Assembly (NCBI GenBank): GCA_013152355.1 | Contig: JAADGO010000079.1 | Span: 1 to 59,035 of the forward strand | Reading direction: 5' to 3' | DNA: 59,035 nt | Source: Chlorobiota bacterium | GTDB taxonomy: Bacteria; Bacteroidota; Bacteroidia; Bacteroidales; Prolixibacteraceae | Shown: positions 37,761 through 59,035 of the stretch, in pieces | How the letters are laid out: each line of letters begins with the position of its first letter | How positions within the stretch are numbered: the first letter of the stretch is position 1 | The notes under the pieces: model-generated | Databases searched by the model: none | The model's input: the letters and a program-made list of their open reading frames with translations, nothing else | What the model was told of the DNA's origin: nothing | Program-made: the position numbers and the translations under genes

Positions 37761-37765
37761 CATTT

Positions 37766-38899: not shown

Positions 38900-38914
38900 T
38901 TTAAATATTTTAAT

Positions 38915-39634: not shown

Positions 39635-39665
39635 CCATATACTGGGTTAAAACATTTATTGAATT

Positions 39666-40808
39666 ATGGCAAAATCAAGATTAAAAGTAATAACATTTGT
39701 AGGTACGCGCCCCGAAATTATCCGGTTGTCCAGGGTCATGCCACTCCTTGATGGGCACTTAAACCATATAATTGCACACACAGGGCAAAACTACGATTAC
39801 GAGTTAAATGAAATATTCTTCAACGGGCTGGAAATAAGGAAACCCGATTATTTTTTAGGTGTAGGCACATCGTCACTTGGAGCTGTTGTTGGCGATATAA
39901 TAAAAAAATCGGAAGAAATATTAAAAAAGGAACAACCCGATGCAGTACTGGTTTTAGGCGACACCAACTCATGCCTTTCGGCCTATATGGCTAAGCGGAT
40001 GAAAATCCCTATTTTCCATTTGGAAGCCGGCAACCGTTGCTTCGACTTTAATGTCCCCGAAGAGATCAACCGCAGGATTATCGACCATATTGCTGATTTT
40101 AACCTGGTTTACACAGAACATGCACGCCGGCATTTGATATCCGAAGGTTTGCCACATAGAAGAATATATTTAATTGGGTCGCCAATGTTTGAAGTATTAG
40201 ATCATTATAAAGTCAAGATAGGAGATTCTAAAATACTCGATGAATTATCGTTAAAAAATAAACGTTATTTTTTGGTGAGTATGCACCGTGAAGAAAATGT
40301 TGACAACCCCCGGAACCTGCGGAAGGTGATTAATATTTTAAATGTATTAATGAGCAAATATCAGTTACCAATAATTGTTTCAACCCATCCCCGTACAAGG
40401 AAAAAACTGGAGGGGCTTAACGAGGCTGCAATTGACCCAGGTATCCGGTTTTTAAAGCCATTTGGTTTTACCGATTATATTTTCCTTCAGATGAATGCCC
40501 TTTGTACAATCTCCGACAGCGGGACAATCAGCGAAGAATCGGCAATCCTTTCGTTCCCTGCAATTTCGTTGCGCAATTCGATGGAACGCCCCGAAGCACA
40601 GGATACGGGAACCATTATCCTGACAGGGTTCGATACTGATACGGTACTTGATTCCATAAGGCTTTCAATTGAAGAACATAAAAACGGTAGCTATAGCCAT
40701 ATCCCTGATGGGTACAAAATAACAAATACCTCGTGGAGGGTACTTAAGCTGATTATGGGGTTAGCAAAACTAAGCAACAACTGGAGTGGGGTAAAAACAT
40801 ATCAATAA
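39666..40808 (+). CDS. fnlC: UDP-N-acetylglucosamine 2-epimerase, non-hydrolysing type (FnlC/CapG/WbjD)
   Basis: 380-aa ORF with VGTRPEIIRLS, VLGDTNS, HLEAGNRCFD...PEEINRRIIDH and SDSGTISEE. Confidence 0.9.
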   Translation: MAKSRLKVITFVGTRPEIIRLSRVMPLLDGHLNHIIAHTGQNYDYELNEIFFNGLEIRKPDYFLGVGTSSLGAVVGDIIKKSEEILKKEQPDAVLVLGDTNSCLSAYMAKRMKIPIFHLEAGNRCFDFNVPEEINRRIIDHIADFNLVYTEHARRHLISEGLPHRRIYLIGSPMFEVLDHYKVKIGDSKILDELSLKNKRYFLVSMHREENVDNPRNLRKVINILNVLMSKYQLPIIVSTHPRTRKKLEGLNEAAIDPGIRFLKPFGFTDYIFLQMNALCTISDSGTISEESAILSFPAISLRNSMERPEAQDTGTIILTGFDTDTVLDSIRLSIEEHKNGSYSHIPDGYKITNTSWRVLKLIMGLAKLSNNWSGVKTYQ

Positions 40809-42169: not shown

Positions 42170-42652
42170 ATGCTTATGAAAGCAGATAAAATAAAATTGC
42201 AGGCATTTTTTCTTACTGTTGCAATATTCGGCACAATCATTTTCTCATTACTGAGGATTAGTAACACCCGTAACAATATTGATATACTGGAGGATACCCT
42301 CGAAGGAGTTAAAACAATAGTACCCGATACATCGGAGGTTTACCTGTTTTCAAACTACCGGGTACCTTTGTCAAAAAACAAAATATATTTTTATACCCAG
42401 TTTGCCCTGGCTCCAAGAATCATTATAAAAGAAGATAACCAAAATGCAGAGGAAAGCTTTAATAAAGTCCCCAATAATGGTTTAATCTTATTAATTGAAG
42501 ATAAAATAAGTGATTCAACATTTTTCCCAAATATCGAATCATCAAATGAGTATAAAATATTGTATGTTAAAAATAACGATATGTACGGTATAAAGCTTCT
42601 AAGTAAAAAACCTTCCTCCCCTGTATCGCTGTTTTCCAAAACGGAGGAATAA
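42170..42652 (+). CDS. Membrane-anchored hypothetical protein (160 aa)
   Basis: Single N-terminal TM (FFLTVAIFGTIIFSLL). The gene is AT-rich and ends 14 nt before the next membrane-protein gene. Confidence 0.5.
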   Translation: MLMKADKIKLQAFFLTVAIFGTIIFSLLRISNTRNNIDILEDTLEGVKTIVPDTSEVYLFSNYRVPLSKNKIYFYTQFALAPRIIIKEDNQNAEESFNKVPNNGLILLIEDKISDSTFFPNIESSNEYKILYVKNNDMYGIKLLSKKPSSPVSLFSKTEE

Positions 42653-42666
42653 AAGTAAGGAATACA

Positions 42667-43980
42667 ATGATTTTAATTGCTTTGCTTTTTTGGACACTTT
42701 CCGTCTTTTTCCTAATTGACAATAAATTGAAAATTAGGAATAAGCCATTAAAGATTATCATCTCTTTCTTTTTTACGTTGGCGGTGATTTCAATAATCTT
42801 TTTTGCTGCACTTCTAACAAAGGTTAATTATACGCTACTGGTAACCGTTTGCATTGCACTTCCGGCTCTTTTTTTAGTGTATAAATGGGGGCAGCTTAAA
42901 GAGTTTGCCATGGGTATTGATTTTAAGGTTACTAAAACTACCATAGTCGTTTTAGTATCTATATTAATTTACTCGTTGCTGTTTTTTGCAACCACAAGCC
43001 GGTGGGGCAATTGGGATGCCTGGGCAATATGGACGCTACATGCTAAATTCCTTACATACGATGCCGGGTATATTAACTTGTTTACAGATGCGACAGCCTG
43101 GACTCATGCTGATTACCCTTTAATGCTGCCATCAATCATTGCTATTACCTGGAAATCCTTCGGTAATTCTTCACCATTGGTACCGGTTATGGCCTCATAT
43201 ATTATTGGGATTGCTGTCCCACTAACAATATATTTTGCATTTAAAGAAAAAAACAATGTGGTTACAGGGCAGGTAATACTTATTTTGCTTACGTGTTCAA
43301 TAATTTTTATCCCGTATGCCAGTTCACAATTATCTGATTCCCTGCTTGGTTTATTTATTTTATTCCCATTTGTTTTAATATACCTCATGCCAAAGGAAAA
43401 GCCTTTTCACTGCCTGTTCCTTATTGGTTTTTTTGCAGCTGCATCTGGCTGGGTAAAAAATGAAGGGTTATTATTTTTTGCCATCTTCTCTTTTTATTAC
43501 CTGGCACGGAACTTTAGGGATTTGAACAATATTAAAATATATGCCCTTGGCACTATTTTACCACTGCTGGTTTTGTTTGTATTCAAATTCTTTTACACTC
43601 CGCCTAATGACCTTATAGACGGGCAAAATAGTGCCACATTGTATAAAGTTATGGATATTGGCAGGTATTTAACCATTGGCAGGTATTTTATATCAACCAT
43701 GCTAAATGAATTTGGCTTACTGTCTGCCTTGCTTGTTTTGATATTCTTTGTCGATTATAAATATTATTTCTCTTTTAATTTTATAATAATTTTAACATTG
43801 CTGGTTGGTTATTTTTTCATTTATGTGGTAACACCTAATGATTTAGAATGGCACTTAAGCACATCTTTTAGCAGGCTGTTGCACCAGGTATTGCCGGTAT
43901 TCCTTTTCACTGCAGGGGTAGCAATAAGCAAAAGAATTGACAGTGGCACCTATAAACATATCTCAGGTATTTACATCTGA
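42667..43980 (+). CDS. Polytopic membrane protein, GT-C/ArnT-like or second polymerase-like (uncertain)
   Basis: 437-aa ORF with at least 10 TM segments and aromatic-rich loops (TSRWGNWDAWAIWTLHAKF). The family cannot be assigned without an HMM search. Confidence 0.5.
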   Translation: MILIALLFWTLSVFFLIDNKLKIRNKPLKIIISFFFTLAVISIIFFAALLTKVNYTLLVTVCIALPALFLVYKWGQLKEFAMGIDFKVTKTTIVVLVSILIYSLLFFATTSRWGNWDAWAIWTLHAKFLTYDAGYINLFTDATAWTHADYPLMLPSIIAITWKSFGNSSPLVPVMASYIIGIAVPLTIYFAFKEKNNVVTGQVILILLTCSIIFIPYASSQLSDSLLGLFILFPFVLIYLMPKEKPFHCLFLIGFFAAASGWVKNEGLLFFAIFSFYYLARNFRDLNNIKIYALGTILPLLVLFVFKFFYTPPNDLIDGQNSATLYKVMDIGRYLTIGRYFISTMLNEFGLLSALLVLIFFVDYKYYFSFNFIIILTLLVGYFFIYVVTPNDLEWHLSTSFSRLLHQVLPVFLFTAGVAISKRIDSGTYKHISGIYI

Positions 43981-46556: not shown

Positions 46557-47960
46557 ATGATTAAAGAAAGTGAACCGGTACTGGAAAGGCTAATCGTTTT
46601 TTTCCAGGTATTGTTAACGTTGGCATGTTTCTTTTTCTCAATATGGCTTTCAGAATACTTTGGCAATACGTTGTCAATCGGCAATAAAGAATATTATGTA
46701 ATGGCATTCCTGATTGCACCTATATGGTTTGTATTGCTTGAATTATTTGAGCTGGGGGCAATGGCCAGGATACAACGCTTCAGGCATTTAATCAAGAAAT
46801 ACATTGGTGTTGTTGCAATAGGAATAACACTTCTGTTTGCTTTAACATTTTTACTTGATTACGACTCGTTGCCACGGTCAGTTTTTATTGTTTTTGCAAT
46901 TATAAATTTTATTGTTTTGTTCTCCCAAAAGGTACTGGGGCGGACTATCATGAAGTATTTCCGCAACCGTGGCTATAATACCAGGATGATTTTAATAATT
47001 GCCGATGACAGTTCTGTCAATTTTATTGAACAACTCAGGCAATCTCCTTATTGGGGCTACCTGATAGGTGGTATAATCACAAACTCTACCGTAATCAGTG
47101 AAAAATATAAAAACTTATACACAATAATTCCTGAGGATGAAGATTTTTCAAAGGTTATTGACGAGAAAGTTATTGATGAAGTTTTTTTCTGTAAAAATAA
47201 TTTTAAAACAAGCGAGGTTATAAAATTTGTTTCGATGTGCCGTGAGGTTGGCGTAATCTTCCATTTACACTCCGATGTTTTTAGTTTTAGCGGCTTACAC
47301 CCCCATTTAACATTCTTAAACCATCAATTCTTCCTGTCGTTCAGGAATACTCCGGAAAATTACCTTGCTTTTAAATTAAAGAGGGGTATTGATTACCTGC
47401 TGGCAATCATCGTGTTAATCCTGTTCTCGCCATTTATGCTGTTAATCTCTGTTTTAATAAAACTTGGCGATAGCGGGCCTGTATTTTTCAGGCAAACAAG
47501 AGTAGGTAAGCACGGCCGCCATTTTACCTGCCTGAAGTTCAGGACAATGGTTGTAAATGCTGAAGAGCTGAAAGGACAACTAATGAGCCAGAATGAGCAG
47601 GACGGGCCGGTATTCAAGATAAAAAAGGACCCGAGGGTCACAAAGATTGGCAAGTTCCTGCGAAAAACTTCTTTAGATGAAATGCCCCAATTCGTCAATG
47701 TTTTAATGGGCGATATGTCGATAGTAGGGCCTCGCCCGCCAATCCCGGAAGAGGTAAAACAATATAAGAGGAGTTTGAACCGCCGGTTAAGCGTCCCCCC
47801 GGGGATTACCTGTATATGGCAAATTTCGGGGCGTAATAATATCCCATTCAATAAATGGATGGAAATGGATATGCAATACATCGACAACTGGTCGTTAAAG
47901 CTTGATTTTATTATCATAGCGAAAACTTTCAGGCTTCTTTTTAATGGCAATGGCCAATAA
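46557..47960 (+). CDS. Initiating polyprenyl-phosphate glycosyl-1-phosphate transferase (WbaP/EpsB-type, Bac_transf domain)
   Basis: 467-aa ORF with N-terminal TM segments and the C-terminal motifs KRGIDYLLAI, GPVFFRQTRVG, FKFRTM-like (LKFRTM), DPRVTKIGKFLRKTSLDEMPQ and MSIVGPRP. Confidence 0.9.
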   Translation: MIKESEPVLERLIVFFQVLLTLACFFFSIWLSEYFGNTLSIGNKEYYVMAFLIAPIWFVLLELFELGAMARIQRFRHLIKKYIGVVAIGITLLFALTFLLDYDSLPRSVFIVFAIINFIVLFSQKVLGRTIMKYFRNRGYNTRMILIIADDSSVNFIEQLRQSPYWGYLIGGIITNSTVISEKYKNLYTIIPEDEDFSKVIDEKVIDEVFFCKNNFKTSEVIKFVSMCREVGVIFHLHSDVFSFSGLHPHLTFLNHQFFLSFRNTPENYLAFKLKRGIDYLLAIIVLILFSPFMLLISVLIKLGDSGPVFFRQTRVGKHGRHFTCLKFRTMVVNAEELKGQLMSQNEQDGPVFKIKKDPRVTKIGKFLRKTSLDEMPQFVNVLMGDMSIVGPRPPIPEEVKQYKRSLNRRLSVPPGITCIWQISGRNNIPFNKWMEMDMQYIDNWSLKLDFIIIAKTFRLLFNGNGQ

Positions 47961-48029: not shown

Positions 48030-48422
48030 ATGAAGGGCATAGTAAATATGGAGTCGCACACCAGGTTCCACCCATGCTTGCCAAAATGTAAACCGGCAGA
48101 AGCAAAAAAGGAGATTCTTGAATCAAAAACGATACTTGAAAAAGAGTTTAATTTGGGTATCAATGCTATTTCATACCCCAACGGCGATTACTCCGAGCGC
48201 GAAATAGCTTATTCTAAAGAGGCTGGCTACAAATGTGGCTTAACGGTTGATTTTGGGTTTAATTCAATCAAATCAGACTTGTTCAGGTTAAAGAGGCTCT
48301 GTGTTAACGATGCTGACGACATCAATGAGTTAATAGTGAAAGCCAGTGGCGTTTGGGACTTTTTCAAAACACTGAATGGGAAAAGGCAAAAGTTTGGCTG
48401 GACAGATAATATTGTACAATAA
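48030..48422 (+). CDS. Polysaccharide deacetylase (CE4) C-terminal fragment lacking the N-terminal catalytic motif
   Basis: 130-aa ORF that begins at the CE4 H-S/T-x-x-H motif (MESHTRFHP) and continues with ISYPNGDY. The TFDDG-type motif 1 region is absent and only 69 nt separate it from the upstream gene. Confidence 0.6.
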   Translation: MKGIVNMESHTRFHPCLPKCKPAEAKKEILESKTILEKEFNLGINAISYPNGDYSEREIAYSKEAGYKCGLTVDFGFNSIKSDLFRLKRLCVNDADDINELIVKASGVWDFFKTLNGKRQKFGWTDNIVQ

Positions 48423-48449: not shown

Positions 48450-49238
48450 ATGAAAAAAACAACTTTTTTCCCGATTATACTTCTTGGGGTGCTTTTACTC
48501 TCCTCATGTAAGTTGCCAAGAGACCTGGTATATTTCCAGGATTTAGCGAATAACCAAACGCTGTTTGGGTCGTCCGTAAAAGTACCTTACTACAAAATCA
48601 GGCCTTTTGATAATTTGTATATCAATATCCAGACATTGGATACTGATGTAAACCAGCTTTTTAACCCAAGCCAGGGGAACAATTTCTTTTCGGGCACCCA
48701 GCAAATGTATGGCGATTTGTCATCGCAATACATCAATGGCTACCTGGTTGAAGCTGACGGAACCATATCATTCCCTATCATTGGCATAATCACCGTTTCA
48801 GGGTTAACGCTGATCGAAGCCCAAAATCGTATTAAAGCCAGGGCAATGGAATATTTAAAAGAACCCATGGTAAAAGTGAAAATTTTAAGTTTCAAGGTTA
48901 ACGTAACCGGCGAAGTGCGTAACCCGGGGCTTTACTACAATTACCAGGGCAAAATAAATGTATTAGAGGCTATTAGCATGGCAGGCGGAATCACCGACTT
49001 TGCTAAGATTGATAATGTAGTGGTCATAAGGCAGGGTAAATTCAACACTCATACACATACCCTTGATTTTACCAGTAAACGTGTATTTGAGTCGGATGCC
49101 TTCTATTTGCAGCCTAATGATTTAGTTTATATCCCTCCACGCCCGAGTAAAAACACACAGATTAATGCATCAACCTATTCTCTTGGGCTTTCTGCAATTT
49201 CTACAATCTTAATTGTATTTGGATTTATTGGTTTATAG
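48450..49238 (+). CDS. wza: Polysaccharide export outer-membrane protein (Wza family)
   Basis: Lipobox LLLSSC, Poly_export motif (YKIRPFDNLYINI) and SLBB-like region (VTGEVRNPGLY...VLEAISMAGGIT). Confidence 0.85.
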   Translation: MKKTTFFPIILLGVLLLSSCKLPRDLVYFQDLANNQTLFGSSVKVPYYKIRPFDNLYINIQTLDTDVNQLFNPSQGNNFFSGTQQMYGDLSSQYINGYLVEADGTISFPIIGIITVSGLTLIEAQNRIKARAMEYLKEPMVKVKILSFKVNVTGEVRNPGLYYNYQGKINVLEAISMAGGITDFAKIDNVVVIRQGKFNTHTHTLDFTSKRVFESDAFYLQPNDLVYIPPRPSKNTQINASTYSLGLSAISTILIVFGFIGL

Positions 49239-49275: not shown

Positions 49276-51618
49276 ATGGAAAAATTTGAAGATTTTATTT
49301 ATTCTCTTGAAACAATGGAGAAAGAGAACCTGCGGAAAGGATATATGAAATACCTGAAAAGGTGGCCATGGTTTGCAGTATTTTGTTTTGCAGGGCTGGC
49401 AGTGAGCCTGCTGGCTTACAAAACTACGCCGCCTACATATAAACTGGAAAGCCGCCTTCTGATCTACGGGGAGAATAACTCCCTCAGTTCGGAAGTAACT
49501 TTCGATGACCACCCCTATTACGAAAAAGGGAATATTGACGACCAGGTCGGAATTTTGCATTCATATTCAATATTCAGGAAAACAGTAGAAAACCTGGGCT
49601 GGCAAATAACATGGTACCAAAATAACCTGCTGTCAAAAAAAGAGTTATACAAAAACGACCCCTTTGAAGTTATTCCCCTGGAAGGAGCTGAGAATTATAA
49701 AAATATTTTGCTGTATATCACGGCACTGAACAGTGAGGAATATATAATCTCTGCCGATACAGAAATAAAAATCAATGGTAAAAAGGAGAAAATAAAATTT
49801 GAACAGAAGTGTAAATTTAATTCACCCTTTGAGCATCCTTTTTTCCACTTTACAGTCAAATATATAAATGGGAAGCCCGGGGAGAAATACTCTTTTAAAT
49901 TTAACCAGCCGAGCCAAATAGCCTTGACTTATTTGAAAAAGGTCAAAATTGATATTAAAAATGAGAAATCGAATTTAGTTTACTTAAAATCAGAGGGGGA
50001 GATCCCGCAAAAAGAAGCAGATTTCCTGAATGAACTGAATAAAGTATTCATTCAGTTCAAAATGGAAAAGAAAAGCCAGAGTTCAAAGAAATCGGTTGAC
50101 TTCATTGAGGCGCAATCAAAAGAAGTAAAAAAATCATTGCAAGCTGCCGAAGAGAGGGTTAATAACTACCGCAAGCATAATAAAGCGATGAATGTGAGCC
50201 AGGAGGCTAATTTAATATATGAAAAACTGGCTGATATAGAGAATGAACAATTTTTAGCCAGCCAGCGGTTAAGTTTTTATAAAAACCTACAGGACAACCT
50301 GGACGATTCGCAAATGATAGGGCAACTGGGCAACCCATCGGCAGTCGGTATTAATGATGACGGCTTAAATACTTTGCTGAACAAACTCATTGAACTATAC
50401 AACAAACGTGAGATACTGTCATTAACCGTCCAGAAAAAGAGCCCTAATTATATCCATCTGGAAAAAGAAATTGAGTTGACGGTCAATAGTTTGAAAAAAA
50501 GCCTGCATAACCTGATCCGGGATGCCGAAAGGGATACGCAAAGCATCAACAACCGTTTTAACACCATACAGGCCAGGTTAGCAAAATTACCTGAAACCGA
50601 AAAGAGGCTGGTCGACATACAGAGGGATTTTGAAGTTAAGAATGAGCTGTACAATTTCCTGATAAAGAAAAAAGCAGAAGCTTCAATCTTACAGGCATCT
50701 ATTGCCCCGCAAGCAAAAGTTATTGACCCGGCCCTGGTTGAAACCGCAGTCAGGGTAGGCCCTGTGCTGATTTTTTATTTATTCGGCGGGATTGTATTGG
50801 GATTCCTGATCCCTTTTATTTTCATCACGGTAATCGGATTTTTCGACAACAGTATTGCATCGCTGGAAGAAATTGAGAAAGAAAGTAAGATACCTGTATT
50901 AGATGGTATAATCCACCATAAATACAAGGTAAAACTGCCTGTGATAGAACATCCGCGCTCAGGGATCGCCGAATCGTTCCGCGGGCTAAAAGTAAACCTG
51001 CAAGAAGTCCTAAACCAACCTGGCAGCAAGGTTATTTCAATAAATTCACTACTCCCCAAAGAGGGGAAGTCTTTCATTTCTACAAACTTTGCAGCCATTT
51101 TAGCAATGTACAATAAAAAAGTGCTACTGGTTGGTGCAGATTTGCATAAACCCAGCATCCATTTGTTTATCGGAGAAAAATCGGATACCGGGCTTAGCTC
51201 TTTCCTGGATAACCAAACCAGTTTTGAGGAGATTATCCAGCCAACCCAGGTAACGAATTTATCCCTCATACAGGCCGGGGCGTCCCGGTCAAACCCTTCC
51301 GGGCTTTTCGACAACGGGCGGCTGGAAGAATTCTTTAACAGGGCACGCGCAGCATTCGACTATATTGTTTTAGACAATGCCCCGGTCTTATTGATTCCTA
51401 ATGCAATTGTTATCAACCAGTTTGCAGATGTTAATTTATTCATTTTACGGTTAAACCAAAGCCATAAAGACCAGATAAAACAAATTAATAAGATAGTAGA
51501 ATTTAACAAGATTAAGCAGGCTTCAATCTTAGTAAATGATGTGCCGCACAAGGGGTATGGTTATGCACACAAGTACTGGAAACAAGGCTATGGGGATGTA
51601 GGAAGCGATAATAAATAG
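49276..51618 (+). CDS. wzc: Polysaccharide co-polymerase/tyrosine autokinase (Wzc/GumC type)
   Basis: 780-aa ORF with a Wzz domain, coiled coils, a second TM, a Walker A-like motif (SLLPKEGKSFIS), Walker B-like VLDNAPV, and a Tyr-rich tail (HKGYGYAHKYWKQGYG). Confidence 0.85.
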   Translation: MEKFEDFIYSLETMEKENLRKGYMKYLKRWPWFAVFCFAGLAVSLLAYKTTPPTYKLESRLLIYGENNSLSSEVTFDDHPYYEKGNIDDQVGILHSYSIFRKTVENLGWQITWYQNNLLSKKELYKNDPFEVIPLEGAENYKNILLYITALNSEEYIISADTEIKINGKKEKIKFEQKCKFNSPFEHPFFHFTVKYINGKPGEKYSFKFNQPSQIALTYLKKVKIDIKNEKSNLVYLKSEGEIPQKEADFLNELNKVFIQFKMEKKSQSSKKSVDFIEAQSKEVKKSLQAAEERVNNYRKHNKAMNVSQEANLIYEKLADIENEQFLASQRLSFYKNLQDNLDDSQMIGQLGNPSAVGINDDGLNTLLNKLIELYNKREILSLTVQKKSPNYIHLEKEIELTVNSLKKSLHNLIRDAERDTQSINNRFNTIQARLAKLPETEKRLVDIQRDFEVKNELYNFLIKKKAEASILQASIAPQAKVIDPALVETAVRVGPVLIFYLFGGIVLGFLIPFIFITVIGFFDNSIASLEEIEKESKIPVLDGIIHHKYKVKLPVIEHPRSGIAESFRGLKVNLQEVLNQPGSKVISINSLLPKEGKSFISTNFAAILAMYNKKVLLVGADLHKPSIHLFIGEKSDTGLSSFLDNQTSFEEIIQPTQVTNLSLIQAGASRSNPSGLFDNGRLEEFFNRARAAFDYIVLDNAPVLLIPNAIVINQFADVNLFILRLNQSHKDQIKQINKIVEFNKIKQASILVNDVPHKGYGYAHKYWKQGYGDVGSDNK

Positions 51619-51702: not shown

Positions 51703-52068
51703 ATGATGGATTCTGATAAATTAGTAATTGCTGTTGATTTTGATGGTACGATAGTAGAACATAAATACCCCAAGATTGGGGCTGAGATCCCTCATGCCCT
51801 CGACACATTGAAAATGTTGAAAGAGCAGGGGCACACGCTGATCCTATGGACCTTCCGTTCGGGGAAAGAACTGGAGAAAGCAATTAAATTCTGTAAAAAA
51901 AGAGGGTTTGAATTCCATGCCGTAAACAACAATTCGCCTGGCGAAACCTATGACCATACTTATAGCAGGAAAATATACGCCGACCTGTATATTGACGACC
52001 GCAATATCCTTGGCATACCTGATTGGGCAACAATATATGAAATAGTAAATTCCAAGGTTAAACCATAA
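51703..52068 (+). CDS. Small HAD-superfamily-like hydrolase (121 aa)
   Basis: The DxDGT motif in VIAVDFDGTIVEH, and a later acidic motif (LYIDDRN). Confidence 0.55.
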   Translation: MMDSDKLVIAVDFDGTIVEHKYPKIGAEIPHALDTLKMLKEQGHTLILWTFRSGKELEKAIKFCKKRGFEFHAVNNNSPGETYDHTYSRKIYADLYIDDRNILGIPDWATIYEIVNSKVKP

Positions 52069-52097: not shown

Positions 52098-53078
52098 GTG
52101 AACACACAAAAATTCTCAGAAGATATCCTTGTTATCAAAGATATCGAATCGGAAGTGGATTCGGTAACAAGGAAATTAAAGGAAGGCATATTAACAGTCC
52201 TTAGGCGGAAGGGTGCCATTATTGGCATTAGCGGTGGGATTGATTCATCGGTAACACTGGCTTTAGCTGTAAAGGCTTTAGGCCCCGAACGGGTAATAGG
52301 GGTAATGCTCCCCGAAAAGGACTCAAGTGAAGACAGCAAGCTATTGGCCCAGGGCCTGGCACAAAAATTTGGAGTTCAAACAATTGAAGAAGATATAACA
52401 AAAGCCCTTGACGGGTTTGGGTGTTACAATCGCAGAGACGAGGCTGTAGCCGCGGTATTCCCCGAGTACAACCCTGCCGAATACAAAATGAAGATAGGTG
52501 TTAGCCAAAAGGGGATCAACCAAAACCTCCCTCCTCTTTTTTCACTGACGATTGTCGATAAAAATGGGCAGGGGAAAAGTAAACTACTCCCATTAAAGGA
52601 ATACCTGCAGATTGTAGCAGCATCTAACTTTAAGCAGCGATGCCGTATGTCGATGCTTTATTACCATGCCGAACGGATGCATTATGCAGTAGTTGGCACA
52701 CCAAACAAGCACGAAGTAGAACAAGGTTTTTTTGTGAAGCATGGGGATGGCGGTGCCGATATAATGCCTATTGCCCATTTATATAAATCCCAGGTTTACC
52801 AGATGGCTGATTACCTGGGGATCCCCGGGGAGATTATCGAACGTACCCCAACCACCGATACGTATTCAGCCGAGCAAACCCAGGAAGAGTTTTTCTTCCA
52901 GTTGCCCTTCAACGAAATGGATATGATCTGGTATGGGTATGAGAATGGTTATGAACCTGCTGAAATAGCCAGGGTATTGAAGATGGGAGAGGATGAAATT
53001 AAATCGGCCTATAAGAATTTCAACCGTAAACAGAAAACAACTGAATACCTTAGAATGCCACCTATTAAAGATTTTTAA
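52098..53078 (+). CDS. NadE-like PP-loop ATP pyrophosphatase (NAD+ synthetase family, single domain, with an internal insertion)
   Basis: 326-aa ORF with a GTG start. It carries the PP-loop GISGGIDSS and a NadE-like C-terminal half (NFKQRCRMSMLYYHAE...VVGTPNKHEVEQGFFVKHGDGGADIMPI..LYKSQVY). An extra segment of about 45 aa (EYKMKIG...LPLKEY) is present. Confidence 0.7.
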   Translation: MNTQKFSEDILVIKDIESEVDSVTRKLKEGILTVLRRKGAIIGISGGIDSSVTLALAVKALGPERVIGVMLPEKDSSEDSKLLAQGLAQKFGVQTIEEDITKALDGFGCYNRRDEAVAAVFPEYNPAEYKMKIGVSQKGINQNLPPLFSLTIVDKNGQGKSKLLPLKEYLQIVAASNFKQRCRMSMLYYHAERMHYAVVGTPNKHEVEQGFFVKHGDGGADIMPIAHLYKSQVYQMADYLGIPGEIIERTPTTDTYSAEQTQEEFFFQLPFNEMDMIWYGYENGYEPAEIARVLKMGEDEIKSAYKNFNRKQKTTEYLRMPPIKDF

Positions 53079-53089
53079 ATAGTATCCAG

Positions 53090-54655
53090 ATGATTCAAAT
53101 ACCTCAACGTTTACTGGGAGAAGCATTGTTGCGTTCGGCCGGGAAGAACCCGTCAAAGGCAGCAATAATCTTTAAAGGCAAGGAATATTCATATTCCCTA
53201 CTGAAAGAAAGCTCTGAGAAACTTGCCTGCCATATTGCCGCTGCCGGGATAAAAAAGGGAGACCGGGTAGCTATTTATATGAATAATTCATGGCAATGCA
53301 TTGTTTCAATATACGGGGCTATTTTAGCAGGTGCTGTTTTCCTTGTTATCAACCCGCAAACAAAAGCAAAAAAATTACAATATATTTTAAATGATAGCGG
53401 TGCAAAGGTGCTGATCTCAGAAATCCTGCTTAAACAGGAGTTCTCTAATGCTTTAGAAGGCACAGAATCTGTCAGGGAAGTCATCATTACCGGTGTAACA
53501 GGTGAAATCATTCAAAAGCCGGATTACAATTTGTCGGCTTTTGAGACTATTATCCAGGGCAATTGCACCAATGCGGGCCTTCCGGATATCATTCCCAACG
53601 ACCTTGCTGCTTTGATATATACTTCGGGCAGCACGGGGTTTCCAAAAGGGGTTATGATGACACACCAATCAATGGTTTTTATTTCGTGGAGCCTTATACA
53701 GTATTTAAGGCTGACAGAAGATGAGCGTATAATGTTGCTTTTGCCACTGGCATTTGATTACGGGCTATACCAGCTATTTATGGCAATAACTGTGGGAGGT
53801 ACGCTAATTGTTGAGCAATCATTCACATTCCCTGCCACCATATACAATCATATTGAGCAATTCAAGCCAACCGTATTTCCGGCAGTACCTACTATTTACG
53901 CAATGATGATAGCCTCCAACAAAGAAACAGGGATTTCATTCGACAGCATAAAAAAAATAACAAATACTGCCGCAGCATTGCCGGCAGAGGTTATTCCCGA
54001 CTTAAAAAAATTATTCCCCAATGCACTGATTTTTAAGATGTATGGATTAACAGAATGCAAAAGGGTTTGCTACCTCGAACCTGAACTGATTGATTTAAAA
54101 CCGGCATCTGTTGGCAAAGCAATCCCCGGCACCGAGGTATTCCTCTTATCACCCGAAGGAGGGCCGGTGCCAACAGGCAAACCGGGGATTTTACATATCC
54201 GTGGGCCTCACGTTATGGCGGGGTATTGGAATAACCATAAAGCAACAGCGGAGATGCTTAAACCGGGCAAGATCCCCGGCGAAAGAATACTATGTTCCAA
54301 CGACTGGTTTAAAATGGACGAAGAGGGATTCCTGTATTTCCAGGGGAGGAATGATGATATTATTAAAACCAGGGGGGAGAAAGTAAGCCCGATTGAGATT
54401 GAAAATATTATTTATAAAGTAAAAGGCATAAAAGAGGTGGCAGTAATTGGTGTCAGGGATAATATCCTGGGGGAATCAATAGCGGCTTTTGTTACTACCC
54501 ATGATTATGCGCAACCGGACGAGAAAGTAATTCAAAAACAATGTATAACCCACCTGGAACTGTTTATGGTTCCTCAAAAAATTATTTTTTTAAAAGAAAT
54601 GCCCAAAAGCACAAACGGGAAAATTGATAAGAAAGAATTGTATAACTACCTCTAA
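53090..54655 (+). CDS. Adenylate-forming enzyme (AMP-binding superfamily; acyl/aminoacyl-carrier ligase, DltA-like role)
   Basis: 521-aa ORF with core motifs LIYTSGSTGFPKGV, YGLTE, WFKMDEEGFLYFQGRNDDIIKTRGEKVSPIEIE and STNGKIDKKEL. Confidence 0.85.
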   Translation: MIQIPQRLLGEALLRSAGKNPSKAAIIFKGKEYSYSLLKESSEKLACHIAAAGIKKGDRVAIYMNNSWQCIVSIYGAILAGAVFLVINPQTKAKKLQYILNDSGAKVLISEILLKQEFSNALEGTESVREVIITGVTGEIIQKPDYNLSAFETIIQGNCTNAGLPDIIPNDLAALIYTSGSTGFPKGVMMTHQSMVFISWSLIQYLRLTEDERIMLLLPLAFDYGLYQLFMAITVGGTLIVEQSFTFPATIYNHIEQFKPTVFPAVPTIYAMMIASNKETGISFDSIKKITNTAAALPAEVIPDLKKLFPNALIFKMYGLTECKRVCYLEPELIDLKPASVGKAIPGTEVFLLSPEGGPVPTGKPGILHIRGPHVMAGYWNNHKATAEMLKPGKIPGERILCSNDWFKMDEEGFLYFQGRNDDIIKTRGEKVSPIEIENIIYKVKGIKEVAVIGVRDNILGESIAAFVTTHDYAQPDEKVIQKQCITHLELFMVPQKIIFLKEMPKSTNGKIDKKELYNYL

Positions 54656-54659
54656 AACT

Positions 54660-55559
54660 ATGTTTAAAGAAGAAATTTTCAACAAAATAAAAGGTGGCCT
54701 GGCAACAAAACTCCAGCTTCCTGAAGATAAACCGGAAGAAACCATAGACTCTAATTTAAAAGCACTTTGGTTTACTGCTGCCGGGCAACCCAAGTCGGCC
54801 GAAAAAGCTGCCGGATTGCCACTCCCTGACATAACAGAACAGCAGATAAAAGTATTTCACCAACTAGTTGAAAAAAGGCTAAATAATACACCGCTTGCCT
54901 ACATTACAGGGCGGCAATGTTTTATGGATATTGAATTATTAGCTGACAACAGGGCATTAATCCCCAGGAAAGAAACCGAAATATTAGGCAGGAAAGCTGT
55001 AGACGTATGCACCCGGGCAGCCCTGTTAAAACAAGAAGTCAAGGTTATTGATGTCTGCTGTGGAGCCGGGAACCTGGCATTAGCCCTGGCGCATTATACC
55101 CCGGCTACTATTGTTAATGCAAGCGACCTGTCACAAGAAGCAGTTGACCTTACACAGGAGAATATTGCTAAATTAAACTTCGGGCACCGTGTACAGGTTA
55201 CACAGGGCGATTTATTCTCGGCTTTTGAAACAGACGGGTTTTATGAGAAAACAGATTTGATTGTTTGCAACCCTCCATATATTTCAAGTGCGAAAGTTGG
55301 GAAGATACATGCCGAGATTTCAGCAAACGAGCCCACTTTAGCTTTTGATGGGGGTATGTTAGGGATAAACCTAATTCAAAACCTGATCAGGGAAGCTTCG
55401 AAATTTTTAACAAAAACAGGATGGTTATTGTTTGAGGTTGGAGTCGGGCAAGGTAGGTTTATTATGAATATATGCGAAAACATGCAGGAATACGATAAAA
55501 TTGAATCAGTATCCGATAATTTAGGCAATATCAGGGTGATATGCGCAAGGAAGAAATAA
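54660..55559 (+). CDS. HemK/PrmC-like N5-glutamine (amide-N) methyltransferase homolog with an NPPY motif
   Basis: PLAYITGRQCFMDIELLADNRALIPRKETE, SAM motif VIDVCCGAGNLAL, and catalytic VCNPPYISS. The ATG at 54660 lies 4 nt after the ligase stop, whereas the track's TTG start at 54624 would overlap the ligase. Confidence 0.75.
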   Translation: MFKEEIFNKIKGGLATKLQLPEDKPEETIDSNLKALWFTAAGQPKSAEKAAGLPLPDITEQQIKVFHQLVEKRLNNTPLAYITGRQCFMDIELLADNRALIPRKETEILGRKAVDVCTRAALLKQEVKVIDVCCGAGNLALALAHYTPATIVNASDLSQEAVDLTQENIAKLNFGHRVQVTQGDLFSAFETDGFYEKTDLIVCNPPYISSAKVGKIHAEISANEPTLAFDGGMLGINLIQNLIREASKFLTKTGWLLFEVGVGQGRFIMNICENMQEYDKIESVSDNLGNIRVICARKK

Positions 55560-55626
55560 CCTTCCAAAAATAGATTTCAAACAGCTTTTAAGACTATTTT
55601 TATAAATTATTTCTTTTGAAATTCTT

Positions 55627-57069
55627 ATGTTGCCTTATTTATTATATTACCTTATTTTTTTAACAGTTGTATCCCTGCTCTATTACTCTGTAAATAAAAA
55701 GTGCAGGCATTATGTGCTATTTGCGGCAAGCCTGCTGTTTATCGCCGGCTTTTCATTGCCGGTAGCGTTATTTTCCTTAGCACTTACAACGTTAAACTAT
55801 TTCCTGGGGCTTCTGCTTGACAGGTTTAAAGATAGGCCAGCCCTTAAAAGCAAAGTATTCTGGCTGGGCATTGTAGCCGATGTGGGGATTCTTGCATTCT
55901 TCAAGTATATCAATATATTCTTTGAAAATATTAATGCGCCCATTTCGTTAACGATTTTTGACGTTAAAATGCCATATTTAACGTTGCTCATACCTTTAGG
56001 GATTTCCTATTATACATTCCAGGCTCTTGGGTATTTGATACTGATAAACAGGGGAAGTGAACAAGCTGAAAGAAATTATGCACGGTTTGCAACCTTCCTG
56101 TTATTTTTCCCAAAATTCCTTTCGGGGCCTGTAGAGCGTTCGGGGCATTTCTTCCCACAAATAAAAAACCCTGGTGTTTTCGACCGGGACAAAGCCGCCA
56201 GTGGTTTAAGGTTGTTATTGTGGGGGGCATTCAAGAAAATCGTTATTGCCAATAATCTTTATGGGCCTGTCTCAAATGTTTATAATGATATTTATAGTTA
56301 TACCGGGGCCTCGCTGATTATTGTTTTATTTATCCAGGTCATATACATCTATTTTGATTTTTCAGGGTACACAGATATGGCTTTAGGCTCTGCAAAAATC
56401 TTTGGGATTGACCTGGTTGATAATTTCAAACGCCCATTCCTGGCTAAAAATGTATCAGAATTCTGGAAACGGTGGCACATCTCATTATCTTCGTGGTGCA
56501 ATGATTTTATTTTTATCCCTTTCATTGTCAAATTCAGGAGGTGGGGGAATACGGCTGCTGTTGCAGGAATATTTTTAACCTTTTTCATTATTGGGGTCTG
56601 GCATGGTGCAAACCTGACATTTGTTGTGCTGGGGATACTTCAGGGCATAGCTGTTGTATATGAGTTTTATACAAAAAAGATAAGGTTTAATATAGCTGCC
56701 AGGCTTCCCAAATATATGGTAAATACATTAGGCCGTTTTTTTGTTTTCTTATTCATGGCCGTATCTATGGTGTTCTTTTACGCCAATTCTTTGACTGAAG
56801 CCTTATACTTCATATCCCATTTATTTTCAGATATAAAATCAGGGATAAATGTGCATGGGCTTATTGCTAACAGTCCGGCATTCCTCCTGGCCCTTGCATG
56901 TTTTATTTTGTTATTTATTGTGGAAATGCTCAATGAAAAAGGAAAAGATATAATGTCATTTTATATGAAACAACCACTGTGGGTCCGTTGGGCGGGTTAC
57001 TTTATTGCTATTGCCCTTATCTATTTTTCGGGCACCGGAATCGAATCATTCTATTATATGAGGTTTTAA
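55627..57069 (+). CDS. MBOAT family membrane O-acyltransferase (DltB/AlgI-like)
   Basis: 480-aa polytopic ORF. FWKRWHISLSSW and the invariant-His region IIGVWHGAN are typical of MBOAT. Confidence 0.85.
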   Translation: MLPYLLYYLIFLTVVSLLYYSVNKKCRHYVLFAASLLFIAGFSLPVALFSLALTTLNYFLGLLLDRFKDRPALKSKVFWLGIVADVGILAFFKYINIFFENINAPISLTIFDVKMPYLTLLIPLGISYYTFQALGYLILINRGSEQAERNYARFATFLLFFPKFLSGPVERSGHFFPQIKNPGVFDRDKAASGLRLLLWGAFKKIVIANNLYGPVSNVYNDIYSYTGASLIIVLFIQVIYIYFDFSGYTDMALGSAKIFGIDLVDNFKRPFLAKNVSEFWKRWHISLSSWCNDFIFIPFIVKFRRWGNTAAVAGIFLTFFIIGVWHGANLTFVVLGILQGIAVVYEFYTKKIRFNIAARLPKYMVNTLGRFFVFLFMAVSMVFFYANSLTEALYFISHLFSDIKSGINVHGLIANSPAFLLALACFILLFIVEMLNEKGKDIMSFYMKQPLWVRWAGYFIAIALIYFSGTGIESFYYMRF

Positions 57070-57077
57070 ACAACTTC
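57065..57077 (-). repeat. Dispersed 13-mer (top strand TTTAAACAACTTC, exact), overlapping the MBOAT stop codon
   Basis: Exact copy; the TAA stop (57067-57069) lies inside it. Confidence 0.8.
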
Positions 57078-57104
57078 TATAGTAACACTATAAAATTAAC
57101 AGCT

Positions 57105-57944
57105 ATGAATATTTTAAAAACAAGTTTTTTTATTTCTATTGCAATTATAACTGCAATAATAATATTTCAATGTTCAAAAAACAATGCCTCCTCTACCGGC
57201 AAAGAGTGCAAGATCCTTTTCTTACACCACAGTACCGGTGCAATAATTTACAAAGGGGGAAGCAGTGGTATCCTTGCTCAACAGGAAGTCCCCAAATGGT
57301 TTAATAATTACAACAAAAAGAATGGTACTTCATACAAAATAACTGAACAGGAATTCCCCAAAAGCCAACCGTACGGATGGAACAACTACCCTTATGATTA
57401 TTATAATATTTGGGTGAAACATGCTGGAAACCAGCCATATCTTGAAGAACCGACACTGGAAATGCTGACGAAGGAGTATAATGTCATAATCTTTAAACAT
57501 TGTTTCCCGGGTAGTAATATACTGGAAGATTTGGATAATGCCGATATTGATTCGCCGGAGAAACGGCTGGGAAACTACAAACTTCAATACCAGGCTTTAA
57601 AACAGAAATTAACCCAATTCCCGGAGGTAAAGTTTATTGTATGGACCGGTGCGGCACTGATCGAAGCACAAACAACCCCGGAAAATGCTGCCCGGGCAAG
57701 AGAATTTTCCGAATGGGTTAAGAATGAGTGGGATACAGACGGCGATAATATTTACGTATGGGACTTCCGCGAACTTGAAACAGAAGGCGGGCTATACCTC
57801 AAGAAGGAATATGCCAGCTCGTCAGGCGATTCGCACCCGGGGAAGGATTTTGCAAAAACTGTAGCCCCGCTACTTTGCCAAAGGATTGTAGATGTGATTG
57901 AGAATAATGGGGCGAAAACAACTCTGACAGGCAAGCCACTTTAA
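57105..57944 (+). CDS. Exported/lipoprotein partner of the MBOAT (occupies the DltD/AlgJ/AlgX position; fold unassigned)
   Basis: The start is set at MNILKTSFFISIAIITAIIIFQCSKNN (signal plus lipobox-like Cys). The track's 56979 start would overlap the MBOAT by 91 nt. LFLHHSTG and SSGDSHPG are loosely reminiscent of SGNH blocks I and V but do not match exactly. Confidence 0.6.
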   Translation: MNILKTSFFISIAIITAIIIFQCSKNNASSTGKECKILFLHHSTGAIIYKGGSSGILAQQEVPKWFNNYNKKNGTSYKITEQEFPKSQPYGWNNYPYDYYNIWVKHAGNQPYLEEPTLEMLTKEYNVIIFKHCFPGSNILEDLDNADIDSPEKRLGNYKLQYQALKQKLTQFPEVKFIVWTGAALIEAQTTPENAARAREFSEWVKNEWDTDGDNIYVWDFRELETEGGLYLKKEYASSSGDSHPGKDFAKTVAPLLCQRIVDVIENNGAKTTLTGKPL

Positions 57945-57945
57945 C

Positions 57946-57975
57946 TTTAAACAACTTCTAATTTTAAACAACTTC
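57946..57975 (-). repeat. Two tandem exact copies of the dispersed 13-mer (57946-57958 and 57963-57975)
   Basis: Top strand TTTAAACAACTTC-taat-TTTAAACAACTTC, starting 2 nt after the stop at 57944. Confidence 0.85.
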
Positions 57976-58041
57976 ATAATTATATTTGAAACCATAATTA
58001 ATAACTTTTAGATAATCTCTGAATATTTAATTTTTTATTTC

Positions 58042-58293
58042 ATGAAAAATTCAACTGATATTAAAGAAGAAGTAAGGCAATTCATTATCGAAACAACATT
58101 TGCCCCTGCAGAACAGGTAAAAAACGACACATTAATTTTCGAACAGGGTATATTCGACTCTATGGGTTTTATTTCATTAATTGTTTTTATTGAAAACACT
58201 TTTAATTTAAACCCAAAAGATTCGGAACTGTTAGAAGAGAACTTTAAGTCGGTCAATGCAATTGCCAATTTTATCGAACGTAAACTTAATTAA
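58042..58293 (+). CDS. Acyl/aminoacyl carrier protein (DltC-like)
   Basis: 83-aa ORF. FEQGIFDSMGFISLIVFIENTF contains the phosphopantetheine-attachment DS motif in a context close to the D-alanyl carrier protein pattern (FE.G..DS.G...L...IE..F). Confidence 0.8.
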   Translation: MKNSTDIKEEVRQFIIETTFAPAEQVKNDTLIFEQGIFDSMGFISLIVFIENTFNLNPKDSELLEENFKSVNAIANFIERKLN

Positions 58294-58304: not shown

Positions 58305-59035
58305 ATGTGCGGAATTGCCGGAATATATAATTACTCTTCGCAACAAAATAGTTCACCCGGACAGAATGTAAAGAGAATGCTTTCGGCAATCAGGCACCGG
58401 GGCCCGGATGAAAGCGGCATGTACCTGGGGAAGGGCGTGGGGCTTGGAAGCGTGCGGTTGAGCATCATCGACCTGGCATCGGGGCAGCAACCCATATCGG
58501 ATGATTCGGAGAATTACTGGATCGTTTATAATGGCGAAATATTTAATTACCGCGAGTTAAGGAGCAGCATTGAGAAAAAAGGCATCAGGCTTAAAACACA
58601 CAGCGACACCGAGGTGGTTGTGCAGATGTATGCTATTTATGGTGCTGGTTGCCTGAAGCATTTCAATGGGCAGTTTGCTTTTTGTATATGGGATAAGAGG
58701 AAACAGGAATTGTTCCTTGCACGCGACCGTGTAGGTATCAGGCCCCTGTTCTACTGGGCAAAGAATGGCTCTTTTGCCTTTTGCTCCGAAATAAAGGGGT
58801 TATTTACCCTTGGGCAGGTTAATAAAGCCATCCGCCCTGAAAGTTTAGCACAGGTTTTTACTTTCTGGTCGACACTTTCGCCCAATACCCCGTTTGAAGA
58901 TATTTATGAACTGCCGCCAGGGCACCAGATGGTTGTGAGTTCTTCAAAAATCCATATTGAGAAATACTGGAGTATGGATTTCCCGGACAAAGGGAATATT
59001 CGCCCCCGCAGTTTACCCGATGCTGTTGAAGAATT
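58305..59035 (+). CDS. Asparagine synthase (glutamine-hydrolysing) family amidotransferase, first ~243 codons (3' end beyond the window)
   Basis: Not in the ORF track because it is open to the window edge. Manual translation from the ATG at 58305 gives MCGIAGIYNYSS...RHRGPDESGMY...RLSIIDLASGQQPI...YNGEIFNYRELR...HSDTEVV...FAFCIWDK...LARDRVGIRPLFY, which has the Ntn Cys2 and the class-II GATase motifs. Confidence 0.85.
   Translation, partial: MCGIAGIYNYSSQQNSSPGQNVKRMLSAIRHRGPDESGMYLGKGVGLGSVRLSIIDLASGQQPISDDSENYWIVYNGEIFNYRELRSSIEKKGIRLKTHSDTEVVVQMYAIYGAGCLKHFNGQFAFCIWDKRKQELFLARDRVGIRPLFYWAKNGSFAFCSEIKGLFTLGQVNKAIRPESLAQVFTFWSTLSPNTPFEDIYELPPGHQMVVSSSKIHIEKYWSMDFPDKGNIRPRSLPDAVEE

Follow-up and report, generated by a model that had tools for sequence, protein, structure and literature searches.

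A carrier protein-linked MBOAT gene module in a Bacteroidota capsule locus, with a possible role in polysaccharide decoration

In the Dlt system of Firmicutes (DltA/DltC/DltB/DltX/DltD), which D-alanylates teichoic acids, a stand-alone adenylating enzyme and a carrier protein of about 80 aa stand beside an MBOAT (membrane-bound O-acyltransferase) as well as an extracytoplasmic SGNH-type protein. Systems such as PatA/PatB, AlgI/AlgJ/AlgX and WssH/WssI also combine an MBOAT with an adjoining periplasmic SGNH-type partner and an exported glycan as target, but they acetylate peptidoglycan, alginate and cellulose from acetyl-CoA and are reported to lack carriers. The hexapeptide FxYxxF, an experimentally established acyl-Tyr shuttle to the SGNH partners, is fused on extra transmembrane helices in PatA/AlgI-type MBOATs, and DltB receives it in trans from the microprotein DltX (PMC12148441). 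The gene module described here joins an MBOAT of the fused type to a carrier protein and an adenylating enzyme. It is located at the 3' end of a 59,035-nt stretch (hereafter the window) of contig JAADGO010000079.1, assembly GCA_013152355.1, from a bacterium of the Prolixibacteraceae deposited as Chlorobiota. Literature searches found no description of an equivalent carrier-MBOAT module, in line with a first-pass annotation of the window, whose author was aware of no characterised system of this type in Bacteroidota capsule/EPS loci.

Gene positions in the window are those of open reading frames (ORFs) on the + strand, and families were assigned by Pfam and NCBIfam profile searches with the cut-offs of the models (Table 1). 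The first-pass annotation had placed a Dlt-like module at 53090-58293, made of four closely spaced co-directional genes for an adenylate-forming enzyme (the ligase below), an MBOAT, a 279-aa exported protein with a lipoprotein-type signal (C1) and an 83-aa carrier. The ORFs and family matches agree with these four genes at these positions, all the motifs quoted for them are present, and the family matches of ligase, MBOAT and carrier are far beyond chance. The unit is nevertheless larger on both sides (from 51703 to past 58293), because it begins with the genes of a HAD phosphatase and a NadE-like enzyme and continues from the carrier into an AsnB-like gene that is cut by the end of the window. 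From Wzc to the AsnB-like gene there is one co-directional series on the + strand, with successive gaps of 84, 29, 11, 4, 67, 35, 97 and 11 nt, and the Wza/Wzc genes lie directly 5' of the module. As to the Dlt comparison, the component logic is there, with a stand-alone adenylating enzyme, a small carrier, an MBOAT and an extracytoplasmic SGNH-type candidate, but membership of the DltB, DltC and DltD families is not: MBOAT, carrier and ligase all score under the Dlt equivalog cut-offs, and C1 has no detectable sequence homology to DltD.

With a probability of roughly 50%, this region is the core of a Bacteroidota module that loads, tailors, exports and attaches an acyl group, decorating the polysaccharide exported by Wza/Wzc. 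The conserved unit comprises more than four genes, namely the NadE-like-ligase pair, the HemK-like methyltransferase, the MBOAT, an SGNH-like protein and the carrier-AsnB-like pair. Exact look-ups of the window C1 and MBOAT gave nothing, and the sequence past the window end was read from the syntenic loci L164 and L165 (sampled loci bear L numbers) of a hydrothermal-vent metagenome. These have the gene order of the window and encode proteins 93-99% identical to its own (MBOAT, 93%), with carrier, AsnB-like, NadE-like and ligase genes likewise near the MBOAT. Five other loci were reached through independently chosen close homologues of the MBOAT (56-62% identity), L166 from Hanamia caeni and L167-L170. 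All five carry, within about 5 kb, orthologues of the carrier (58-72% identity), the AsnB-like (62-74%) and the NadE-like enzyme (64-77%) as well as the ligase, and four of them carry the methyltransferase. Some close MBOAT homologues at these loci are labelled Ginsengibacter, Hanamia or Prolixibacteraceae. Outside this genome the module was found in hydrothermal-vent Bacteroidota, Lentimicrobium, Hanamia caeni, the other MBOAT-sampled loci and many metagenomic contigs.

The MBOATs of seven further type A loci (defined below) cluster with those of L164-L170. In a neighbour-joining tree, the module MBOATs form one clade apart from generic MBOATs. Every locus of the clade that was sampled has a carrier gene no farther than about 1 kb from the MBOAT, and inside the clade the split follows the class of the ligase. 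The sister group is composed of 'second' MBOATs that have an 80-85-aa carrier directly upstream, together with the MBOAT of L117, for which no adjoining carrier was detected. As a control, 80 generic MBOAT loci (31-38% identity) were taken from among the matches listed in a genome scan with the MBOAT alignment, and neither the window-type carrier nor C1 was found in any of them. Another type of carrier, which has a WDSL motif, does lie within 10 kb in 7 of these 80 loci, in L028 directly upstream of the MBOAT, so that the count of 0/80 holds only for the window-type carrier and C1.

ORF clustering of the loci gave three module layouts. In type A (e.g. Lentimicrobium, L001), NadE-like and ligase genes are followed on the opposite strand by a transmembrane-anchored SGNH protein (C7) and the MBOAT, and then by C1, carrier and AsnB-like genes. 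Type B is a module without MBOAT. Type C (L132 and L146) is also devoid of an MBOAT; its carrier, AsnB-like, NadE-like, ligase and methyltransferase genes are followed by that of a hexapeptide acyltransferase, which takes the MBOAT slot, and then by those of C1, Wza and Wzc. An MBOAT clade that always occurs with the module, and a module that sometimes occurs without MBOAT, fit an MBOAT that consumes the product of the module and for which other transferases may substitute. A polysaccharide context (Wza/Wzc, initiating transferase, glycosyltransferases or sugar-nucleotide enzymes) was found for the module in the window, L164, L170, L166-L168, L132 and L146.

The MBOAT bears both the RWHISLS and the VWHGAN motifs, in which H284 and H326 are invariant among 44 homologues and aligned with the His residues of DltB. 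Its sole sequence relative of solved structure is DltB (6bug, E = 6.5e-29), which covers residues 119-355 only, and its sole NCBIfam match is the DltB model TIGR04091. However, it is not a DltB: the score is 170.4 bits against a cut-off of 375, and the protein ends in ...ESFYYMRF, where FYYMRF (residues 475-480) is a fused FxYxxF. The alignment of the 44 homologues shows no variation at Y477 or F480 and a conservation of at least 90% at F475, and the FxYxxF ending is common to all related MBOATs examined. Beyond the DltB-aligned region there are hydrophobic segments at 368-389 and 417-435, plus a hydrophobic stretch just before the motif. With the fused motif and the extra transmembrane helices, the window MBOAT has the architecture of PatA/AlgI, with which it shares the catalytic His (PMC12148441), and not that of DltB. 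By architecture the module appears to belong with the MBOAT-SGNH systems of polymer acylation, from which it departs by its constant carrier, ligase and tailoring genes. Three of the MBOAT-sampled loci also hold extra co-directional triads adjoining the main module (L166 19202-20963, L167 16464-18240 and L168 15668-18412). Each triad encodes an 80-85-aa carrier with a WDSL motif, an MBOAT ending in FIYxxF/Y and a transmembrane-anchored SGNH-like protein of 319-333 aa, and has no ligase of its own.

The NCBIfam matches of the ligase are all below their cut-offs (the best, TIGR03098, at 442.8 bits against 592), and no DltA model is among the 25 best. In a sequence search of the PDB, the adenylation (A) domain of the nonribosomal peptide synthetase (NRPS) LgrA ranked top, followed by VinN (233 bits), which is the best single-domain solved relative, malonyl-CoA synthetase (182) and DltA (141). 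The A4 motif LPLAFDYG, which lines up with FDxS in LgrA, retains the Asp, the residue that in A domains binds the amino group of the substrate. By these comparisons the ligase appears closer to NRPS A domains and VinN-type aminoacyl-carrier ligases than to fatty-acyl-CoA ligases, and is probably an aminoacyl/acyl-carrier-protein ligase. The reading as a fatty-acyl-CoA ligase, suggested by the top NCBIfam names, was rejected on the scores under cut-off, the PDB ranking and the A4 Asp; a grouping with such ligases that act without a carrier would, according to the first-pass annotation, have spoken against the Dlt-like idea. Two classes of ligase were recognised across the loci. The window type has 518-528 aa and the A4 Asp, and is accompanied by the methyltransferase in 8 of 8 loci. 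The class of type A loci has 484-490 aa and a PFYYCYG motif without the Asp, and the methyltransferase never accompanies it (0 of 8). At least two different acids thus seem to pass through the module, and the methyltransferase seems, from this distribution, to be specific to amino-type cargo.

The carrier matches in the PDB the type II peptidyl carrier protein (PCP) PltL at E = 7e-8, DltC at 6e-6 and the acyl carrier proteins (ACPs) of fatty acid synthases at about 0.1. The likeness to D-alanyl carrier proteins put forward in the first-pass annotation is second to that to PltL, and the DltC models are matched under their cut-offs (PRK05087, 36.7 bits against 68; TIGR01688, 27.7 against 52). 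On PltL, the cargo undergoes tailoring while still bound to the PCP. The window encodes a PP-binding domain with the DS-motif Ser and an ANL enzyme, and L164 has an Sfp-type (HetI/AusB-like) phosphopantetheinyl transferase (PPTase) gene three genes downstream of the carrier. The window carrier is predicted from its motif to be a phosphopantetheinylated type II carrier, and the position of the PPTase gene in L164 indicates that in this lineage the operon includes a dedicated PPTase. In that locus, the region past the point where the window ends (L164 14680-17355) encodes a 349-aa PCP-thioesterase fusion and then the Sfp/HetI-type PPTase of 260 aa; a secreted PHB-depolymerase-like alpha/beta-hydrolase (286 aa) follows, with which the operon ends. 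These three genes were not found in other module loci.

The first-pass annotation had treated the other enzymes of the region as extras embedded in the quartet. The two tightest pairs of the module are however carrier-AsnB and NadE-ligase: in 21 of 23 loci the AsnB-like gene comes directly after the carrier gene (3-15 nt apart wherever coordinates were called for the two), and the NadE-like gene adjoins the ligase gene in 16 of 17, almost always directly upstream. The AsnB-like, NadE-like and HemK-like enzymes are core components of the module. Enzymes of the AsnB-like and NadE-like kinds perform ATP-dependent carboxylate-to-carboxamide chemistry, and the HemK family methylates amide or amine nitrogens by means of its NPPY motif. 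The N-terminal part of the AsnB-like protein, the portion encoded in the window, matches TIGR01536 best among NCBIfam models and TIGR03108 second-best; the homologue in L164 is full length (670 aa) with an Asn_synthase domain. The NadE-like protein scores over the NAD synthase cut-off and the methyltransferase 1 bit over that of PrmC, so that automatic annotation would name them NAD synthase and PrmC.

The 279-aa protein C1 has, as the first-pass annotation had stated, an export signal of the lipoprotein type, consisting of one N-terminal hydrophobic helix followed by a lipobox Cys23 (IFQC) that is at least 90% conserved. No Pfam or NCBIfam model matches it even at E = 10, and the 4028 homologues in the database are all labelled hypothetical. 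With its AF2 model (pLDDT 90), Foldseek returned almost solely SGNH/GDSL esterases and O-acetyltransferase domains (E = 2e-4 to 4e-2, TM-score 0.4-0.47), among them a polyvinyl alcohol (PVA) esterase, CE2, PatB, OafB and OatA-C. The motif LHHSTG with Ser43 and the pair S243-H244 are invariant, and the Asp preceding the latter is not conserved. As to DltD, AlgX and AlgJ, with which the first-pass annotation had proposed to compare the predicted structure, C1 is none of these by sequence, and in structure it gave only generic weak SGNH matches. According to the model, C1 has a divergent SGNH-like fold, not recognisably that of DltD, AlgX or AlgJ, and is a candidate periplasmic acyltransferase or esterase. 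Where DltD has a transmembrane anchor and a Ser-His-Asp triad, C1 has a lipoprotein anchor, and as a putative partner it also differs from those of PatA/PatB-type systems in belonging to a family without a Pfam model. Homology of C1 to C7 or C11 was considered and rejected (hhalign probability 1.5%, BLASTP E = 91); C7 itself gave no Pfam, NCBIfam or PDB sequence match. In type B loci L109-L112 (e.g. L111 6923-8290) a secreted Big_2 protein of 455-483 aa is encoded between the carrier and C1. Its C-terminal region resembles a type IX secretion system sorting domain as judged by eye, and its N-terminal domain showed no family match and no similarity to C1.

From the domain identities, motifs, synteny and co-occurrence, we infer a donor-acceptor chain with tailoring on the carrier and a polysaccharide as target. 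The adenylating enzyme would activate an acid carrying an amino group, for which a dicarboxylic acid, as in the case of VinN, would be a guess. The same ligase would then thioesterify the acid to the 83-aa holo-carrier, made by a PPTase such as the one encoded in the operon of the near-identical locus L164. The AsnB-like and/or NadE-like amidotransferases might convert a carboxylate of the tethered acid into a carboxamide, and the HemK-like enzyme might N-methylate an amide or amine of the cargo. At the cytoplasmic face, the MBOAT would take the acyl group from the carrier thioester onto its own Tyr477 in the FxYxxF shuttle. Finally, an extracytoplasmic SGNH-type protein would accept it on a Ser and esterify the polymer or a lipid-linked intermediate, C1 being the candidate in the window. 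A wider proposal can be made only tentatively, and we hold it to be doubtful: Bacteroidota, and probably other bacteria of the FCB group, may possess an unrecognised class of carrier-dependent MBOAT systems, in which an amino-type acid on a type II PCP is tailored by AsnB-like, NadE-like and, in one sub-class, HemK-like enzymes, passes the membrane by way of an MBOAT with its own Tyr shuttle and is esterified to capsule or exopolysaccharide (EPS). Gram-negative polysaccharides would then bear non-acetyl esters, e.g. amidated or N-methylated aminoacyl groups.

Several described systems come close to the module, and each differs from it. Compared with the Dlt system, the module adds three tailoring enzymes (AsnB-like, NadE-like and HemK-like) and, as read from L164, a PCP-thioesterase and a PPTase; the Dlt FxYxxF shuttle resides on DltX, in contrast to the shuttle fused to the window MBOAT with its extra helices. 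The module is moreover found in a diderm host, where a Wza/Wzc polysaccharide, and not teichoic acid, is the probable target. In Vibrio cholerae, AlmE/AlmF/AlmG add glycine to lipid A by a Gram-negative, carrier-dependent aminoacyl esterification of the DltA/DltC type; AlmG, however, is an enzyme of the LPLAT family and not an MBOAT as in the window. The Bordetella pertussis dra locus (cited in PMC4448142), a further Gram-negative example of this type, is a plain set of dltABCD homologues, unlike the module. Both AlmEFG and dra lack amidotransferase/methyltransferase tailoring and lie outside capsule loci, whereas the module has the one and lies in the other. The loading pairs PltF/PltL and VinN/VinL resemble the window ligase and carrier. 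VinN loads 3-methylaspartate on a free ACP. These pairs feed polyketide or NRPS assembly lines, but the window has no condensation (C) or ketosynthase (KS) domain, and the downstream partner is apparently a membrane acyltransferase. The families TIGR03098 and TIGR03108, matched by the ligase and the AsnB-like protein, are likewise uncharacterised genes of EPS loci (XrtA/PEP-CTERM). They belong to proteobacterial exosortase systems; in the window the scores are under cut-off or come from a truncated fragment, and no exosortase was seen. The text of Haft 2006 (PMC1569441) holds nothing on the ligase or carrier families.

Several observations weigh against the proposed chain, some at the position of C1 and others at the donor. 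As to the first, C1 may not be the acyltransferase partner of the MBOAT but an esterase of carbohydrates with an editing, trimming or de-protecting role, the MBOAT acting with another partner or transferring directly; this would be compatible with either donor model, and we regard it as a serious possibility, if one below even odds. The structural matches of C1 are weak (TM-score at most 0.47), and the two top ones, the PVA esterase and CE2, are esterases. In a C1-anchored sample of 80 metagenomic loci (50-66% identity), module genes were present in 32. Where the sequence reached 2.5 kb or more to either side (25 loci), the module was there in about 11 and missing in 11-14, or about half. C1 homologues of 58-65% identity (L002 10001-10804, L003 10001-10858) are found in clusters resembling polysaccharide utilisation loci (PULs), with GH95, GH88, fucosidases, pectate-lyase-like proteins and several esterases but no module gene, which suggests that the unnamed C1 family includes carbohydrate esterases. 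C1 also occurs in module loci without MBOAT and is absent from L166-L168, and in type A loci the MBOAT has its own transmembrane-anchored SGNH neighbour while the C1 gene is transcribed with carrier-AsnB. The co-occurrence of the quartet beyond this genome, expected in the first-pass annotation, holds for ligase, MBOAT and carrier, which recur in Bacteroidota, but is looser for C1, which in L170, with the gene order of the window, is replaced in its slot by a C7-type protein (transmembrane anchor, GDSQG, DYFH). C1 is the loosest member of the gene set, and the stand-alone and PUL loci, the MBOAT-less module loci and its absence from L166-L168 rule it out as an obligate MBOAT partner. On the other hand, C1 is the sole SGNH-type candidate in the window and L164, in the very slot that the transmembrane-anchored SGNH protein occupies in L170. 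PatB, OafB and OatA transferase domains are among its structural matches, and in a rough family tree the stand-alone and module-linked members are mostly apart, which allows different activities.

As to the donor, two independent functions may share one locus: acetyl-CoA-dependent O-acetylation by the MBOAT and an SGNH protein, as in PatA/PatB or AlgI/AlgJ/AlgX, and a separate cytoplasmic carrier pathway. In that second pathway, ligase, carrier, AsnB-like, NadE-like and methyltransferase would build another substituent, e.g. one that is amide-linked or N-acyl and is placed on a nucleotide sugar or a lipid-linked repeat. This is the main rival reading, which we think rather unlikely. In its favour, the fused FxYxxF is the architecture reported for MBOATs that use acyl-CoA without carriers (PMC12148441), and docking of the carrier on the window MBOAT is a postulate of the proposed chain. 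The carrier is linked most tightly to the AsnB-like gene and not to the MBOAT, which is often on the strand opposite to the module genes. The module exists without MBOAT in at least seven loci (L109, L111, L112, L113, L127, L132 and L146), and the MBOAT position of L132 and L146 is taken by a hexapeptide acyltransferase, a cytoplasmic enzyme. The sampling of loci was moreover anchored on the MBOAT or C1 and not on the carrier. AsnB homologues of polysaccharide loci classically amidate uronic acids, which also suits a separate pathway; however, family searches of the window genes showed no UDP-glucose dehydrogenase, and with no obvious uronic-acid target such an amidation is less plausible at this locus. 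Two independent functions also do not readily account for the behaviour of the MBOAT clade, which has the module in every sampled case, was found in no module-less EPS locus and has a phylogeny that tracks the class of the ligase. The carriers directly upstream of the sister MBOATs, and those near other MBOATs such as that of L028, would be difficult to account for if carriers had no bearing on these enzymes.

It is quite improbable that the module serves to produce a small metabolite of the NRPS-like kind or an aminolipid for the membrane, with the MBOAT acylating a lipid or exporting the product and the polysaccharide uninvolved. The PCP-thioesterase, the Sfp-type PPTase, the type II PCP and the NRPS-like A enzyme are all present, the carrier weakly matches an ornithine-lipid ACP model, and type A loci such as L001 and L169 are outside obvious Wza/Wzc loci. 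However, a condensation domain is missing, as is any N-acyltransferase of known aminolipid pathways, and bacterial FxYxxF MBOATs with SGNH partners are polymer acylators. The embedding of the module among polysaccharide genes in the window and the seven other loci named above argues in the same direction. The idea that housekeeping genes (for NAD synthase, PrmC, asparagine synthase, a fatty-acyl-CoA ligase and an ACP) came by chance to lie beside an O-acetylation pair has very little to recommend it. The two scores above NCBIfam cut-offs that suggest it include a PrmC match of 1 bit over the limit for a methyltransferase that strictly follows one ligase class, and distant lineages of Bacteroidota have this set again, with its adjacency conserved.

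The region upstream of the module is a typical Bacteroidota capsule locus (Table 1), which in addition to the tabulated genes has Wzx, Wzy, glycosyltransferase and GNAT genes; its FnlA/B/C-like genes suggest an L-FucNAc-type sugar. Four of its ORFs (35248-36624, 38915-39634, 42170-42652 and 42667-43980) had no Pfam match at E <= 1e-8. The HAD phosphatase at the start of the unit is kept in window-type loci only (tblastn identity 93% in L164 and 66% in L170). For the methyltransferase, the ATG at 54660 (299 aa, as called in the syntenic L164) is most likely the start, and the overlapping TTG at 54624 is less likely. Two genes of the locus appear damaged. A polysaccharide deacetylase, complete in L164 and L170 (303-305 aa) between the initiating transferase and Wza, is reduced in the window to a 130-aa C-terminal remnant (48030-48422), and the interval, about 540 nt shorter, indicates a deletion or pseudogene. 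A DegT/DnrJ/EryC1 aminotransferase (32763-33907) is broken by a frameshift near 33050-33110: its N-terminal part of about 100 aa is in one frame, and a 265-aa ORF with a TTG start (33110-33907) covers profile positions 105-357 only. This split gene is either a pseudogene or a sequencing error.

Table 1. Genes of the module and of the adjoining capsule locus in the window
Feature	Position	Strand	Evidence or context
UpxY/NusG-like gene	28814		capsule locus upstream of the module
FnlA/B/C-like genes	36750-40808		capsule locus upstream of the module
Initiating transferase	46557-47960		capsule locus upstream of the module
Wza-type exporter	48450-49238	+	Pfam Poly_export and SLBB
Wzc-type chain-length regulator/kinase	49276-51618	+	syntenic genes of L164 and L170 match GNVR and AAA_31
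Small HAD phosphatase, BT0820 family	51703-52068	+	NCBIfam NF046079, 173 bits (cut-off 165)
NadE-like PP-loop ATP-pyrophosphatase/amidotransferase paralogue	52098-53078	+	NF002048, 440 bits (cut-off 313)
Stand-alone adenylating enzyme (AMP-ligase), 521 aa	53090-54655	+	Pfam AMP-binding, 299 bits; AMP-binding_C, 61 bits
HemK/PrmC-like NPPY methyltransferase	54660-55559	+	TIGR03534, 200.1 bits (cut-off 199.1); Pfam MTS
MBOAT, 480 aa	55627-57069	+	PF03062, 73.6 bits (cut-off 27)
279-aa lipoprotein C1	57105-57944	+	predicted SGNH-like fold; no family model
83-aa type II carrier protein	58042-58293	+	PP-binding, 27 bits (cut-off 20.8); phosphopantetheine Ser in FDSMG
AsnB-like glutamine amidotransferase, N-terminal 243 aa, cut by window end	58305-59035	+	GATase_7, 155 bits

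In current models, the donor of Dlt is a carrier and its shuttle comes in trans, whereas all other MBOAT-SGNH systems of polymer acylation lack a carrier, draw on acyl-CoA and have the shuttle fused. A clade of carrier-linked MBOATs with a fused shuttle would, if the load, tailor, export and attach reading is true, blur this two-way division. It would surprise specialists of envelope-polymer acylation, although for everything beyond the gene content we infer rather than observe. Dlt-like chemistry would then extend to capsule and EPS loci of diderms. The reading would also offer what may be an example of an AsnB-family enzyme that works on substrate tethered to a carrier. A pathway context would be provided for the more than 4000 'hypothetical' lipoproteins of the C1 family, and for NadE, PrmC and AsnB paralogues mislabelled as housekeeping enzymes by automatic annotation. 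For environmental Bacteroidota, new ester substituents on their polysaccharides would be predicted, and such substituents could affect surface charge, recognition by phages and predators, and the degradability of the glycans.

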